DNA from: a virus
Lineage: Duplodnaviria; Caudoviricetes
Direction: 5' to 3' (one strand)
DNA: 25,047 nt
Virus record (IMG/VR): IMGVR_UViG_3300025296_000120
Location: 1 to 25,047 of that record
Translations under genes and position numbers: made by a program
Shown here: one piece after another, positions 962 through 24,628 of the stretch
How the letters are laid out: each line of letters begins with the position of its first letter
Position numbering within the stretch: position 1 is the first letter of the stretch
The notes under the pieces: generated by a model
Databases searched by the model: none
The model's input: only the letters and a program-made list of their open reading frames with translations
What the model was told of the DNA's origin: nothing

Positions 962-1456
962 ATGAACATTTTTATGCTAGACTACAATCCTATCATTGCA
1001 GCCCAGATGCACTGTGACAAACATGTAGTTAAGATGATACTAGAGAGTGCACAGATGTTATCAACTGCTCACCGTGTGTTGGATGGCGACGACTATGCAG
1101 ATTCTAATAAGTTGTATAGAGCAACACATAAGAACCATCCCAGTAACGTGTGGGTTAGAAAAAGTCTACACAATTATTTGTGGTTGCATGAACTGTTTGT
1201 GCAACTGCTACTGGAGTACGAGAACAGGTACAATAAAGTTCATGCATGTGATAGGCTGGTTAATAAACTTAGCACTGCACCAGAAAATATTGGCGACTGT
1301 GCTGGTGATCCTGTGCCACAGTGTATGCCAGATAAATACAAAGTTAAATTTGATACCGTTCAAGCTTATCGTAACTATTACTTAGGAGAGAAAGCATACT
1401 TTGCTAAGTGGAGTAAGTCTTCTGTGCCTTTATGGTGGAAGGAGGCGTTATCCTAA
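962..1456 (+). CDS. Pyrimidine-dimer DNA glycosylase / T4 endonuclease V (DenV)-like family protein
   Basis: Family-typical MNIFxLD...HCDKHVVKMILESAQMLSTAH, HxNHPSxxW, and C-terminal PQCMPDxY...AYRxYY. GGAG SD is present. Confidence 0.8.
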   Translation: MNIFMLDYNPIIAAQMHCDKHVVKMILESAQMLSTAHRVLDGDDYADSNKLYRATHKNHPSNVWVRKSLHNYLWLHELFVQLLLEYENRYNKVHACDRLVNKLSTAPENIGDCAGDPVPQCMPDKYKVKFDTVQAYRNYYLGEKAYFAKWSKSSVPLWWKEALS

Positions 1457-1569: not shown

Positions 1570-1663
1570 GGAATGGGTTATTAAAATAAATGAGTATCTA
1601 AACAGAAGTGATGCACCAAAATATTTATCCGGTAAAAAAGGAAATGCTGATGACACCACATGA
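1547..1663 (+). CDS. Putative 38-aa microprotein (MKLFIKIKEWVIKINEYLNRSDAPKYLSGKKGNADDTT)
   Basis: Translated by hand. GGAGG lies upstream, and the ORF overlaps both neighbours as is usual in this cluster. Confidence 0.45.
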   Translation: MKLFIKIKEWVIKINEYLNRSDAPKYLSGKKGNADDTT

Positions 1664-2009
1664 AAAACTAAAGTTGCTTAGAGATAAGGTTGCTACTAAA
1701 GGAAATCCTATTGATAGACAGCACATTATAAATAATTTGAAAGATGTTTATGATCCCGAAATTACCAGTGTAAGTATTTATGAGTTAGGGCTTATTTACA
1801 ACATCGACATAGATGAGAGTGAGGGTACTGTAGAGTTAACACACACGCTAACAAGTGCATGGTGTCCATTTGCAGATGAGATTGTTCATGCTATACATAA
1901 AGCTTGTGAGGTAGATAATGTTGACTCTGTTAATATCATTACGACATTTGATCCACCGTTTAGTATGGACATGGTTCCAGAAGAAACCCGACTAATTATG
2001 GGGTGGTAG
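1650..2009 (+). CDS. DUF59 / SufT (FeS_assembly_P, PaaD-like) Fe-S cluster maturation protein
   Basis: LKDVYDPEI..SIYELGLIY, TLTSAWCP (conserved Cys) and FDPPFSMDM motifs. ATG 1650 follows AAGGA; the track start is GTG 1608. Confidence 0.85.
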   Translation: MTPHEKLKLLRDKVATKGNPIDRQHIINNLKDVYDPEITSVSIYELGLIYNIDIDESEGTVELTHTLTSAWCPFADEIVHAIHKACEVDNVDSVNIITTFDPPFSMDMVPEETRLIMGW

Positions 2010-2015
2010 AGGACT

Positions 2016-2507
2016 ATGAGAGCTTTACCCGAAGAGTTTACTGTACAAGAATCAGATAAGGATGGTCTTGGTCTATTTGCTAGGCAGGAAATAATTTTCT
2101 TTCCTAATGCTGTGTGTCATATACACCATCCTTATCTGGGTTGGCTGCGAACTGCAGTAGGGGCCTTTCTTAATCATAGTGATACACCAAACTGTATCGT
2201 GCAAGAAAGTACTGTTGTGATTAAAACAGCTAGTGCCATAGCTGACTTTAGATTGGATCGTTATTTGTTGGGTACTGAAAGTAATCATAAGACAGGCGTA
2301 ACGGTTAAAATTAGATGCCTGTTACAGAGTAGAAAAATTAACGCTGGTGATGAAATCACCGTAGCATATGAGGATATAAATCATCATGGAATACGATACC
2401 TTGGAGATACCGGCCTTCTTACGCCGTCACAAGAAGAGGGGCAGGCCCAGAAAAATTATTCAACCAGACTTGCTGCCCGTAAAAGACAAATGGAAACAGT
2501 GGGATAA
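2016..2507 (+). CDS. SET-domain protein (putative SAM-dependent lysine methyltransferase)
   Basis: SET motifs GLGLFA, FLNHSDTPNC and INAGDEITVAY. GAGGA SD is present. Confidence 0.85.
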   Translation: MRALPEEFTVQESDKDGLGLFARQEIIFFPNAVCHIHHPYLGWLRTAVGAFLNHSDTPNCIVQESTVVIKTASAIADFRLDRYLLGTESNHKTGVTVKIRCLLQSRKINAGDEITVAYEDINHHGIRYLGDTGLLTPSQEEGQAQKNYSTRLAARKRQMETVG

Positions 2508-2838
2508 AATTAAACAAAAAAGGTATGGAACACGCTATGATATAACTTTAGGTGATGAGGCACCAAGAATAGGTAGTGGGTTACGAATTGTATATGTTAA
2601 AGAAGGTCGTAAGTGGGCTACCATGACTAGCCATACTGGTGATCCTGATAAAAAGGAAGGTAAAGTAATTAAGAAGTTTAAGTTGAAAATTTGGTATGGA
2701 ATTAAGGCTGCACATGAACGCCGTTTGAAAAGGAATGATCCCGATGAAGTTGCAAAACGCCAAAGTCGTAGACGTTATAGAAAGATATATACAAACCCCG
2801 GAGTTCAAGACCAAGATACGAGCGGACAAAACTCGTGA
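2386..2838 (+). CDS. Basic protein with N-terminal FtsZ C-terminal-peptide-like motif and AT-hook
   Basis: N-terminus is MEYDTLEIPAFLRRHKKRGRPRK. GAGGA SD at 2370-2374. It is the only + strand ORF in the track covering 2508-2734. Confidence 0.75.
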   Translation: MEYDTLEIPAFLRRHKKRGRPRKIIQPDLLPVKDKWKQWDKIKQKRYGTRYDITLGDEAPRIGSGLRIVYVKEGRKWATMTSHTGDPDKKEGKVIKKFKLKIWYGIKAAHERRLKRNDPDEVAKRQSRRRYRKIYTNPGVQDQDTSGQNS

Positions 2839-3742
2839 TCAATATGAGTATCAATTACGGAAGTTGTGTGATCTACAGTTAGAGGGTGTTCCTGTAAAGG
2901 ATATTAAAATGCCAGATTTAACAGTGGCTAAGTGCCAACATATTTACTGGCAGTTGGTTGAGAGTGTTGGTGACGGTAAAGGTATTCGATTTGCAAATTA
3001 CACACTCCAGATTGTTACTCGTGTGTGGAATGTGCTTATGAAGTATGACCTGTTAGAAAAAAATCCTTGGTGCTTTGTAGAAAGGGGTAAGCCTGCACCT
3101 AGAAATACCATATGGAATACCGAAGACTTTACTACTTTTCTAAATACTGCATTTGGTGTACCTAAGTGGCGTAACATAGGTCTTCTGGTGCGTATCAATG
3201 TAGAGTTGGGTCAACGTATAGAGGATATACGCCTGTCTGAATGGGAAAACTATAACCTAGCAGATGGCTTGTATACCAGAGAGGTGATATTAAAAACTAA
3301 TGAACGCATAGCGGGTATACCCATGTCAGATTCCCTCATACAAATGCTAAAGGAACAGAAAGAAGTATACGACTTTCAAAATTGGGTCGTACCAAATCCT
3401 ATTACGCTTGAGCCATACAGTGAGCACAATATATCTCGTACTTTTAGAAAAATAATGGTTGCAGCTAAGTTGCCATCTCGTTTGCAGTTAAGGGATATTC
3501 GCAGAACCGTGTTAACAGACCTTGCTAACCACGGGGCTACCGATACAGAAATCATGGCTTACAGTGGACACAAGAGTAGGGAGAGTTTGATGCCTTATGT
3601 GTGCATTAACACAGAGCAGGCCCGTAATGCTGCCAACAAGCGGCAATTTAGTATGGAAGAAAATGATGAATGGCAACAATTTAAACGTAGTCTTATGACT
3701 ACAGAAGAACTTTTAAATGAGATTGAGTTTAAGGATGAATGA
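2744..3742 (+). CDS. int: Tyrosine recombinase / phage integrase
   Basis: GQRIEDI (Arg I), LRDIRRT (box II), SGHKS and catalytic Tyr in LMPY. ATG 2744 follows AAGGA; the alternative start is 2735. Confidence 0.88.
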   Translation: MKLQNAKVVDVIERYIQTPEFKTKIRADKTRDQYEYQLRKLCDLQLEGVPVKDIKMPDLTVAKCQHIYWQLVESVGDGKGIRFANYTLQIVTRVWNVLMKYDLLEKNPWCFVERGKPAPRNTIWNTEDFTTFLNTAFGVPKWRNIGLLVRINVELGQRIEDIRLSEWENYNLADGLYTREVILKTNERIAGIPMSDSLIQMLKEQKEVYDFQNWVVPNPITLEPYSEHNISRTFRKIMVAAKLPSRLQLRDIRRTVLTDLANHGATDTEIMAYSGHKSRESLMPYVCINTEQARNAANKRQFSMEENDEWQQFKRSLMTTEELLNEIEFKDE

Positions 3743-11595: not shown

Positions 11596-11774
11596 AAGTA
11601 AAAGCACGAGTATCAATGCTTCTAGAATTAGACGCAGAAGAGTTTCTTATGCCTGTAGATGGTGATCCAACAGAGGAGCTTGAAGAAATGTTAGAAGAAC
11701 TAGTGGATCACCTTGACGGTACTAGACTTGTACGCCTTAACATTAAATGCACTGGAGGACAACTACATGAATAA
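11592..11774 (+). CDS. Hypothetical protein
   Basis: ATGA overlap with the upstream gene. The protein is acidic. Confidence 0.7.
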   Translation: MKVKARVSMLLELDAEEFLMPVDGDPTEELEEMLEELVDHLDGTRLVRLNIKCTGGQLHE

Positions 11775-13719
11775 TTTAATGAGTGATTACCAAAGAGTTA
11801 TAGCTATGTCACGTTACGCCAGATGGAATGGGGAAAAACAAAGAAGAGAAACATGGCAAGAGACAGTAACCCGCTTATTGAATTTCTATAAAGATTATTT
11901 AAAAAATAAACATAGCTATGCCATGCCAAAAGAACTGTACACTGATCTGTATGTAGCTATTGTAACCATGCAGGTAATGCCTAGCATGAGAGCTATGATG
12001 ACGGCTGGTCCAGCATTAGAGCGCAACCACATTGCTGCATACAATTGCAGCTATATGCCTGTTGATAGTCCACGAGCGTTTGATGAGTGTCTATATATTT
12101 TGATGCATGGAACAGGCGTAGGCTTCTCTGTGGAGAGGCAGTACATAGCACAACTTCCAAAAGTACCAGATGAATTTGAGGACAGTGAGACAACTATTGT
12201 TGTGCAAGACAGCAAAGAAGGTTGGCATCGTGGCTACAAGGAATTGATTAATCTTTTATACGCTGGCATGGTTCCTAAATGGGACATGTCAAGAATACGT
12301 CCAGCAGGAGCGAAGCTAAAGACTTTTGGTGGTAGGGCAAGTGGTCCTGACCCTCTAGATAACCTATTTGTATTTACTACAAACACATTCAAGAAAGCTT
12401 CCGGGCGAAAGTTATCTAGCATTGAGTGCCATGATCTTATGTGTAAAATTGCAGATGTCGTAGTAGTAGGCGGTGTTCGTAGGTCAGCCTTGATCAGTCT
12501 GTCTAACCTTTCAGATGATCGTATGCGCCATGCCAAGGCAGGATCATGGTGGGATACAGAGCCTCAACGTGCGCTATCTAACAACTCTGTGTGCTATACA
12601 GAAAAGCCAGACATAGGAACATTCATGCGTGAGTGGGTATCCTTGTACGATTCTAAATCAGGAGAGAGGGGAATATTTAATCGTAGGTCTGCTCAACAGC
12701 AAGCAGCTAAGTATGAAAGGAGAGATGCCAATATTGACTATGGAACTAATCCCTGTTGTGAGATTATTCTACGACCAAAGCAATTCTGTAATTTATCTGA
12801 AGTAGTCGTTAGAGCAGAGGATACGCCTGAAACATTGCAGAGAAAGGTTGAGCTTGCCACTATCTTAGGAACTATTCAGTCTTGTTTAACGGATATCAAA
12901 GGACTAAGTAGGCAATGGACACGTAACACTGAAGAAGAGAGGTTACTAGGTGTTTCCTTGACTGGGATCATGGACAATAAAATGTTAGCCAATAAAACAA
13001 AAGATAGCCTTCCTTCATTGTTGGTCAGTCTTAGGACACATGCAGTCAATACTAATCGTAAGTGGGCCTCTACACTAGGCATAGAGACTTCTGCAGCCAT
13101 TACCTGTGTCAAGCCTTCAGGAACAGTAAGCCAGTTAGTCAATGCTGCAAGCGGTATTCATCCCAGACATAATGATTATTATGTACGAACCATAAGAGCA
13201 GATAAGAAAGACCCACTGACACAATTTTTAGTTGATCAGGGCTTTCCACATGAGGATGCTGTAGAAAAACCAGATAGCATGACTGTGTTCTCTTTTCCAT
13301 TCAAGTCTCCAGATGCTGCAGTAACCAGAAAAGATATTTCTGCAATTGATCACTTGACTTTGTGGAAAATATATGCTACTAATTGGTGTGAACATAAGCC
13401 ATCTATTACAGTAAGCTTGAAGGAAGCAGAGTGGCTGGGAGTAGCTAATTTTGTGTACGATAATTTTGATGACATGTCAGGCATAAGTTTTCTTCCTATG
13501 ACTGAACATACATACAAGCAGGCTCCCTATCAGGACTGTGATAAAAAGGCTTATGTAGAACTTGCAAATAAAATGCCTGCACAAGTTGCGTGGGAGGAAT
13601 TTAGTAATTATGAAAAGGAAGATTTAACTTCAGGAACACAGGAACTAGCATGTACTGCAGATGCATGTGAGATAGTAGACTTTCCTTCTGTTATTCCTTT
13701 AGCTGCTTCCCCACAATGA
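11767..13719 (+). CDS. nrdJ: Class II (adenosylcobalamin-dependent) ribonucleotide reductase, monomeric RTPR-like
   Basis: PSMR, YNCS, GTGVGFS, GGVRRSA, TNPCCEI, CVKPSGTVS and C-terminal CTADAC motifs. No beta subunit is nearby. ATG 11767 follows GGAGGA. Confidence 0.92.
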   Translation: MNNLMSDYQRVIAMSRYARWNGEKQRRETWQETVTRLLNFYKDYLKNKHSYAMPKELYTDLYVAIVTMQVMPSMRAMMTAGPALERNHIAAYNCSYMPVDSPRAFDECLYILMHGTGVGFSVERQYIAQLPKVPDEFEDSETTIVVQDSKEGWHRGYKELINLLYAGMVPKWDMSRIRPAGAKLKTFGGRASGPDPLDNLFVFTTNTFKKASGRKLSSIECHDLMCKIADVVVVGGVRRSALISLSNLSDDRMRHAKAGSWWDTEPQRALSNNSVCYTEKPDIGTFMREWVSLYDSKSGERGIFNRRSAQQQAAKYERRDANIDYGTNPCCEIILRPKQFCNLSEVVVRAEDTPETLQRKVELATILGTIQSCLTDIKGLSRQWTRNTEEERLLGVSLTGIMDNKMLANKTKDSLPSLLVSLRTHAVNTNRKWASTLGIETSAAITCVKPSGTVSQLVNAASGIHPRHNDYYVRTIRADKKDPLTQFLVDQGFPHEDAVEKPDSMTVFSFPFKSPDAAVTRKDISAIDHLTLWKIYATNWCEHKPSITVSLKEAEWLGVANFVYDNFDDMSGISFLPMTEHTYKQAPYQDCDKKAYVELANKMPAQVAWEEFSNYEKEDLTSGTQELACTADACEIVDFPSVIPLAASPQ

Positions 13720-23755: not shown

Positions 23756-24628
23756 TTACTTCTTGTCTTTATCCGATTTAGGCTTTCTATTCTCTGGCTT
23801 TAGGTATTTATCTCCTACAATGAAACCATGAAAGTTCTCTCGTAAGAAAGTATACACTGTTTCTGTAGGAATAGACCAACCCATGTGGGTTACAGCCTGA
23901 AATCCAGCCGCTGATACTCTGGAAGGTACGCCAATCATTTCATACTTCTTGCGTATATCAGAGTAAGCGAATAATGCACCACCACTATTACCAAAGATAA
24001 TAGGTGCAGTGGCTAGTTGATATCTATATCCGTTAATAACCTGTTCAGCAAAAGCCATCTCTCCTGAAGTCATGGAAGGTGGAAAACCTAATCCTGCACC
24101 TACGGCCCATACAGTCTGGCCTAGTTTAGGTGACTCTTTCTCTGGAAGCATATAGGCAATACGTACTACACCACGCTCTGTATCTCGTAGTTTAAGTAGA
24201 GCTAAATCTCTTTGCTCATCATGTGCTACGATATCCGCTATACGACCACGAGTACCTACTGAACGAGAACAACGCACATAGTCAAACCAGAATGCAGTTA
24301 CAGGCTCCCTAGTTTCCCGTTTAACCTTCTTACCTTTCATACCGTCCCATACTTCTCTTATGGTAATCTGTTCACCAATTACATGGTAGTTGGTTAGGAT
24401 ATATGATTCCCACTTACCTTCATGTTGTTTTGAATATAGAACTGTACCAGAACCTGCAGTATTAATACGTACTGCTGTATCTAGCATCTCTTCATGTTGT
24501 GGTCCACAGTTTGCTGCTATAGCTTTTGTGGAGTCACATTGTAAAAGCATTCCTGACAATGCTATTACACTGAAGAAGGAGAAAAAAGTCTTTCGTAGTT
24601 TTGGAAAATTAAAAAATTTATTTTTCAT
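23756..24628 (-). CDS. Trypsin-like (S1, Trypsin_2) serine protease with N-terminal signal peptide and no PDZ domain
   Basis: Catalytic triad motifs ILTNYHV, DLALL and IFGNSGGALF. The N-terminus has a basic n-region, a hydrophobic h-region and an AIA site. Confidence 0.9.
   Translation of the reverse strand: MKNKFFNFPKLRKTFFSFFSVIALSGMLLQCDSTKAIAANCGPQHEEMLDTAVRINTAGSGTVLYSKQHEGKWESYILTNYHVIGEQITIREVWDGMKGKKVKRETREPVTAFWFDYVRCSRSVGTRGRIADIVAHDEQRDLALLKLRDTERGVVRIAYMLPEKESPKLGQTVWAVGAGLGFPPSMTSGEMAFAEQVINGYRYQLATAPIIFGNSGGALFAYSDIRKKYEMIGVPSRVSAAGFQAVTHMGWSIPTETVYTFLRENFHGFIVGDKYLKPENRKPKSDKDKK

Follow-up and report, generated by a model that had tools for sequence, protein, structure and literature searches.

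We find that the window, by which we mean the whole stretch of DNA analysed here (a 25-kb record of an uncultured marine phage, 25,047 nucleotides), encodes a 150-residue phage protein that opens with a look-alike of the FtsZ tail while not being FtsZ itself. The N-terminus of this protein, the product of ORF 2386-2838, is MEYDTLEIPAFLRRHKKRGRPRK, and its residues 4-14 reach 37.4 bits on a profile of 27 alphaproteobacterial FtsZ tails, on which FtsZ itself scores 23-39 bits. The motif thus scores like a genuine FtsZ tail, with all FtsZ positions kept. That the ORF opens with an FtsZ-tail-like peptide had been claimed in a preliminary description of this DNA and is borne out on tails that were fetched independently; the E. 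coli FtsZ tail quoted there is the sequence printed in the accessible part of PMC4117426. No FtsZ was found in the phage record.

The tails in the profile were not collected by their motif. The FtsZ family model TIGR00065, applied to 61 alphaproteobacterial genomes, returned 30 loci, and once one unpublished genome and one open-ended locus had been left out, there were 28 tails, of which 27 could be aligned over their core. Among the 20,886 11-mers of the window, the runner-up scores 4.9 bits, and approximately 1e-8 chance matches are expected at the score of the motif. The consensus [DE]-x-L-[DE]-I-P-[AST]-F-L-R-R is matched by the window's protein at 11 of 11 positions, the same 11-residue pattern as in the CCTP/CTC of FtsZ (E. 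coli 370-383). Both peptides are extended and then helical within a flexible segment, which on the phage side is a prediction (AlphaFold2 models residues 1-32 as extended, with a three-residue helix at 10-12). However, the FtsZ tail is always C-terminal and ends in a free C-terminus, whereas the phage motif lies at the N-terminus (residues 4-14 of 150) of a non-FtsZ protein that has no GTPase domain, and continues into a basic linker. Mimicry of the SSB C-terminal tail was considered as well and was rejected, because the SSB motif requires a terminal Phe.

The phage family has a median of 15.9 bits on the same profile, which is under the FtsZ self-range, and it is relaxed at three positions that alphaproteobacterial FtsZ conserves. 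Position -1 is D or E in 96% of alphaproteobacterial FtsZ as compared to 27% of 52 family motifs (where T accounts for 37%), the residue after the Pro is D or E in 61% of the family motifs but in none of the 27 FtsZ tails, and the first Arg, which is found in 100% of the FtsZ tails, is present in 40% of the family motifs. In an alignment of sequences picked for their intact N-termini (A3), P9 and L12 are invariant, and I8, F11 and R14 are kept in at least 90%.

Table 1. Positions of the features discussed in the text (numbering of the window)
Feature	Position	Strand	Remarks
SET-domain gene	2016..2507	+	Pfam SET E 5.6e-5; 3' end lies over the motif in another frame
Shine-Dalgarno-like GAGGA	2370..2374	+	11 nt 5' of ATG 2386
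FtsZ-tail-mimic gene	2386-2838	+	150-aa basic phage protein, 40 K+R, 19 D+E
Layout of the 150-aa protein	2386..2838	+	FtsZ-tail-like motif, then basic linker, then small beta-sheet core
FtsZ C-terminal-peptide-like motif, residues 4-14	2395..2427	+	37.4 bits on FtsZ-tail profile
AT-hook-like basic patch KKRGRPRK, residues 16-23	2431..2454	+	subfamily-specific
Folded core, residues 33-136	2482..2793	+	helix, four strands, helices; predicted
Tyrosine integrase	2735..3742	+	first gene of integrase-primase-helicase-PolA block

ATG 2386 is the earliest possible start of the gene, because an in-frame TAA sits 5' of it at 2377-2379. The GAGGA element lends this start weak support, since in the window's subgroup it falls on codons of the overlapping SET gene; an SD-like element is seen at 20 of 33 distinct motif-bearing loci, a count that is partly confounded by SET codons. 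A promoter scan of the window gave 17 candidates, which is no informative excess over the 12.0 +/- 3.7 expected. Among 62 protein homologues, [ILVM]PxFL is present in 43 and RGRP in 38. Nineteen homologues lack the motif, one of them with a different N-terminus and 18 beginning downstream of it; 4 of these 18 database entries match loci whose DNA carries the motif upstream in frame, and a start downstream of the motif is therefore ruled out. The preliminary description had named a true start past 2427, or a motif absent from homologues, as findings that would refute it. Instead, the start precedes the motif, and the motif is conserved, also at loci lacking the SET overlap. Absence is genuine in P0059, L034 and L039.

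Viral loci for the conservation counts were retrieved by patterns of the core only. In the 46 closest loci, the motif is present in 43 and absent in 2, with the region cut in 1, while only 4 of 34 more distant loci carry it (all without RGRP) and the other 30, mostly short, do not. Since the motif is missing from 30 of the 34 distant loci and from 2 of the 45 close loci that have the region, it is dispensable in many phages. The window's motif falls inside the 3' end of the SET ORF, which raises the possibility that it is a by-product of that frame, or else of chance. This reading is refuted: SET overlaps the motif in only 10 of the 43 motif-bearing close loci, whereas no overlap is seen in 33 (2 of which sit so close to a contig end that one could be missed), and the chance expectation given above is very small. 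The overlap is thus not required for conservation of the motif. Furthermore, a comparison of 33 distinct DNA versions reveals silent changes in the Pro, Leu and Arg codons of the motif, which shows that selection acts on the protein frame of the FtsZ-tail mimic. A stand-alone SET gene is found directly upstream of the FtsZ-tail gene in about two dozen related loci, at two genomic positions.

A profile search of 1.84 billion representatives, covering all lengths, found 320 relatives. Of the best 150 of these, 55 carry the motif and 95, mostly core-only proteins, do not. With a profile of the core only, 61 relatives had a long N-terminus and 47 of these the strict motif, so that its conservation is no artefact of the profile. 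By contrast, [RK]GRP occurs in 7 of the 55 motif-bearing relatives among the best 150. The motif is kept in distant relatives where RGRP seldom is, which makes the FtsZ-like motif the conserved element of the family. The core alone is a widespread phage protein family of 55-100 residues (L047-L080, with P0087-P0214 as short members), and neither Pfam nor PHROG has a family for these short core-only proteins.

The motif is not confined to this family. Cellular genomes and viral contigs were both searched with a DNA pattern encoding [DE]-x-L-[DE]-I-P-x-F-L-R-R. The cellular scan had an estimated 20,000 or so matching stretches, 120 of which were listed, and 119 of these 120 lie within 7 residues of a stop. 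Eighty of the listed matches had long flanks: 70 show an FtsZ signature in the same ORF and 4 upstream in another frame, while of the other six, 1 resembles an FtsZ that has diverged, 4 run into contig ends and 1 is no FtsZ. Among the cellular matches listed, the pattern therefore retrieves almost only FtsZ tails. One cellular match, L191:3565-3633 from a Parasphingorhabdus MAG, has the phage-type D after the Pro and no ftsZ nearby, and is possibly a prophage gene. Viral contigs gave 93 matches as compared to 7 and 7 for two permuted control patterns. Of the viral matches 83 are strict, falling in 74 distinct ORFs and, after masking of the motif, in 42 families, a number that may be inflated by fragments, while the strict pattern undercounts the spread of the motif. 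In 18 of these families the motif sits at the C-terminus, in 14 at the N-terminus and in 10 internally, and D or E follows the Pro in 21 of the 42 as compared to 1 of the 120 cellular matches listed. No FtsZ signature was found in the viral carriers within flanks of 1.2 kb (0.3 kb for 13 loci); for about six ORFs cut at the 5' side, flanks of this length do not suffice to rule FtsZ out.

Annotation scans covering 55 and 38 carriers named MT-A70 methyltransferases, a GapR-like protein, an ERF annealing protein, a DUF1376 primosomal protein and a helicase, with no PHROG match for 21 of the 38 carrier proteins scanned. All four cultured relatives of two carriers that were examined (Cr30, phiM12, PA5oct, 8P) lack the motif. 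Together with the fact that the core of the window's protein occurs both with and without it, this identifies the motif as an add-on module. Judged from these sequences, it appears to be portable across about 42 unrelated phage families, and FtsZ-tail mimicry is for this reason better supported than the preliminary description had grounds for. Several carriers merit mention in their own right. The MT-A70 methyltransferases, on prophage-like contigs and with 23 ORFs in one family, have the motif after a long low-complexity linker, either C-terminally or ahead of a further domain (L086, L090-L093, L096, L106, L108; more are found in L115-L117, L121, L122 and others). A T4-like protein (phrog_11903) has it at the N-terminus in the marine phages L151, L164 and L165 but lacks it in Cr30, phiM12 and PA5oct. 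Very long phage proteins with an internal motif (L082, L158, L094, L105, L128) are possibly virion or ejected proteins, which would bring the motif in at entry. Small phage proteins at L089:934-1242, L130:1191-1427 and L136:1191-1907, two of them Cys-rich, end in a gammaproteobacterial-type tail; they use its Tyr-containing form and copy its flanks and its distance to the stop.

Beyond the motif, the protein of the window continues with KKRGRPRK at residues 16-23, an RGRP core with basic flanks. The preliminary description took this to be a canonical AT-hook, and the RGRP flanked by K/R does resemble one (PF02178), a type of motif that binds the minor groove of AT-rich DNA. However, the Pfam AT_hook model needs 17.4 bits and matches residues 16-25 with 15.8 (E 0.012), the patch, a candidate DNA binder, is present in a single copy, and it is absent from most distant relatives (kept in 7 of 55 motif-bearing ones, against 38 of the 62 close homologues). 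The patch rather appears to be one subfamily's version of a basic linker, the 25 residues after the motif being 35% K+R. As to the core, AlphaFold2 gave a pLDDT of 84-97 across residues 41-130. Foldseek against the PDB returned no match for it at E<=0.001, and the best hit in a fold comparison was to PipX (VIA Z 4.1, rmsd 6.9, 78 aligned). The Pfam model Phage_ProQ_C_like (PF24203) matches 4 of 19 relatives, all below the cut-off (best E 2e-4). The core is possibly Tudor/KOW/SH3-like, resembling the ProQ C-terminus, a lead that comes from weak matches. The 150-residue protein matched no PHROG family and no PDB sequence. In the ESM Atlas, there was no usable match for the full protein, and a core-only relative led only to viral clusters below 0.9.

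The PolA of the window shares 53% identity with that of HMO-2011, CRP-345 and CRP-1, and its top 12 tblastn matches, all full-length, are HMO-2011, CRP phages and HTVC033P. It has a weak PF00684 match at 290-327, a DnaJ-type CXXCXGXG insert, and the HMO-2011 record lists the same domain. With a PolA that carries a partial DnaJ central domain and is closest to those of HMO-2011-type isolates, the phage is of the HMO-2011 type. The order integrase-primase-helicase-PolA is likewise common to both, whereas the first 20-22 kb in HMO-2011 and CRP-345 yielded neither the motif nor the core. Because the 12 best PolA records come from phages of SAR116, Roseobacter or SAR11, we infer an alphaproteobacterial host. 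No relative of the 150-residue protein was found in cultured phage records, none was found by core patterns in 185,579 cellular genomes, and no tRNA was found in the window. From its position, the FtsZ-tail gene is probably expressed with early or replication genes. The integrase adjoins it in the window, but not in every relative: the gene is found ahead of the integrase, or with the helicase on one side and PolA on the other, or within phages that have a different PolA. A role as excisionase of the integrase was dropped, as many relatives occupy the second of these positions or belong to other phage groups. Nearby, 1608-2009 (+) is an iron-sulfur cluster assembly gene (FeS_assembly_P, SufT/DUF59-like, E 1.9e-12) that is also present in L001 and L002 and is apparently an auxiliary metabolic gene, and 962-1456 (+) is pyrimidine dimer glycosylase-like (phrog_624; Pfam Pyr_excise below cut-off). 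By eye only, 11713-13719 (+) is a ribonucleotide reductase and 23756-24628 (-) a trypsin-like serine protease.

Which host protein would read such a tail? In the accessible parts of the papers cited here and below, the E. coli FtsZ tail binds ZipA, FtsA, MinC, ZapD, ClpX and SlmA, and both I374 and L378 are crucial to FtsA, ZipA and MinC (PMC4117426); the fixed I and L of the phage family correspond to these two residues. We surveyed 41 alphaproteobacterial genomes for FtsA, ZipA, SepF and MinC. FtsA was over the cut-off in 38 of the 41 and MinC in 4 (37 and 3 of 40 without the unpublished G044), while ZipA and SepF were found in none. From the list of partners in the preliminary description FtsA is thus retained, ZipA and SepF drop out for these genomes, and MinC holds for few. 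As the sole common tail reader found among those surveyed, FtsA is the likeliest partner. That the motif meets some FtsZ-tail pocket seems likely to us, and that this pocket is FtsA's reasonably probable.

Our preferred reading, held tentatively and put somewhat below an even chance, is that the motif docks in the tail pocket of host FtsA as a decoy that competes with FtsZ and blocks division. The phage protein's copy of the tail would sit in the tail-binding pocket of FtsA, where subdomain 2B takes up the FtsZ tail, and the bound copy would compete with FtsZ, such that division of the infected cell would be blocked. In the least supported step, the basic linker (AT-hook-like in the window's subfamily) and the core would bind nucleic acid and display many tails, which would offset the weak affinity of a single one. 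For portable motifs on DNA-binding carriers in general, phage DNA may become an FtsA ligand with many tails, which would out-compete the Z-ring, fix the phage genome to the membrane, or do both, a proposal that we consider only just short of evenly balanced. As free fragments, residues 354-383 of FtsZ are inhibitory to E. coli in vivo (PMC10769210), and T5 and T7 gain from blocking host division (PMC10714956). Single tails bind weakly (20-35 uM for ZipA, PMC10769210; about 81 uM for SlmA, PMC4117426), so that the protein would have to be abundant or displayed on DNA. No avidity or residue-level FtsA data were found in the accessible parts of PMC5832921 and PMC9939409. FtsZ R379E does not complement and cannot support growth in E. 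coli (PMC3983244), which, given the relaxed first Arg of the phage family, argues against a strict FtsA ligand family-wide. When residues 1-32 were modelled in complex with FtsA of the SAR116 type (10-408, alignment of 24 rows), the score was 0.01, which speaks neither for nor against binding.

The motif might instead be an address tag for FtsA, by which the protein and any phage DNA that it binds would be held at the membrane or at the site of division, to serve replication or segregation, while division is not stopped. The annotated carriers are mostly DNA-acting, the linker is basic and the gene sits in the replication block, all of which would suit a tether. Yet most carrier families are unannotated, DNA-acting genes are common in phages, which makes the enrichment among carriers an apparent one, carriers as small as 68-79 residues leave little cargo, and RGRP is not retained in distant relatives, and we consider this reading unlikely, though it retains some weight. 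The preliminary description had offered decoy and tether as alternatives; the tail mimicry common to both is strengthened by the portable motif, whereas the AT-hook half is weakened by the restriction of RGRP to a subfamily.

Just as unlikely, to our mind, is a true copy of the FtsZ tail that would address another reader, be it ClpX(P), FzlC or a further alphaproteobacterial factor, leading to turnover of the carrier or titration of the factor. Fixed I, P, F, L and second Arg combined with a relaxed position -1 and first Arg may suit a different pocket, a degradation tag would suit any carrier, and K380, which equals the second Arg, matters for the degradation of FtsZ by ClpXP (PMC3983244). 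On the other hand, ClpX reads a C-terminal motif via R379 and K380 (PMC3983244), whereas the phage motif is N-terminal with a variable first Arg. If the likeness to FtsZ were convergence on a short amphipathic helix, the motif would be a docking peptide for a host protein unrelated to the FtsZ partners. The systematic departures from FtsZ at three positions would fit this, as would the fact that the link to division comes from sequence, but the pattern singles out FtsZ almost exclusively among the cellular matches listed, and the gammaproteobacterial-type carriers copy flanks and C-terminal distance too; we regard convergence as improbable.

In the literature searched, which included few subscription papers, no description of a phage copy of the FtsZ tail was found, and the motif strings occur in no paper of that literature. 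There is a real chance that the motif represents a general, undescribed class of phage motif. Its spread over the families found points to a strategy shared among phages of abundant proteobacteria in sea and soil, and it offers a testable function for many unannotated genes. If portable tail copies on DNA-binding carriers do make phage DNA a ligand of FtsA, this would be a widespread and undescribed route to divisome takeover. Escape from a tail copy would be hard for a host unless FtsA and FtsZ were both altered. The natural tail variants could be used to map the residues that are read by each host partner.

In this context, the protein can be compared with the small phage proteins that stop division, namely T7 Gp0.4, lambda Kil, T5 Hdi (T5.008), P1 Icd and SPO1 gp56. 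By inference it would act like these inhibitors while apparently standing outside the described inhibitor families; no sequence link to any of the five was seen by PHROG, PDB or cultured-phage searches. A fitness gain was demonstrated for T5 Hdi and T7 Gp0.4 (PMC10714956). Resistance to Hdi and Gp0.4 arises, according to that paper, through changes in the body of FtsZ (F268), and SPO1 gp56 is described as acting on DivIC/FtsL; for none of the five did the literature searched mention a tail copy. The known inhibitors hit FtsZ itself or later parts of the divisome, whereas the hub for membrane anchors and regulators would be where an FtsZ-tail copy exerts its effect. SlmA resembles the phage protein in that DNA binding is coupled to an FtsZ-tail interface (PMC4117426), but while SlmA binds the FtsZ tail, the phage protein presents one.
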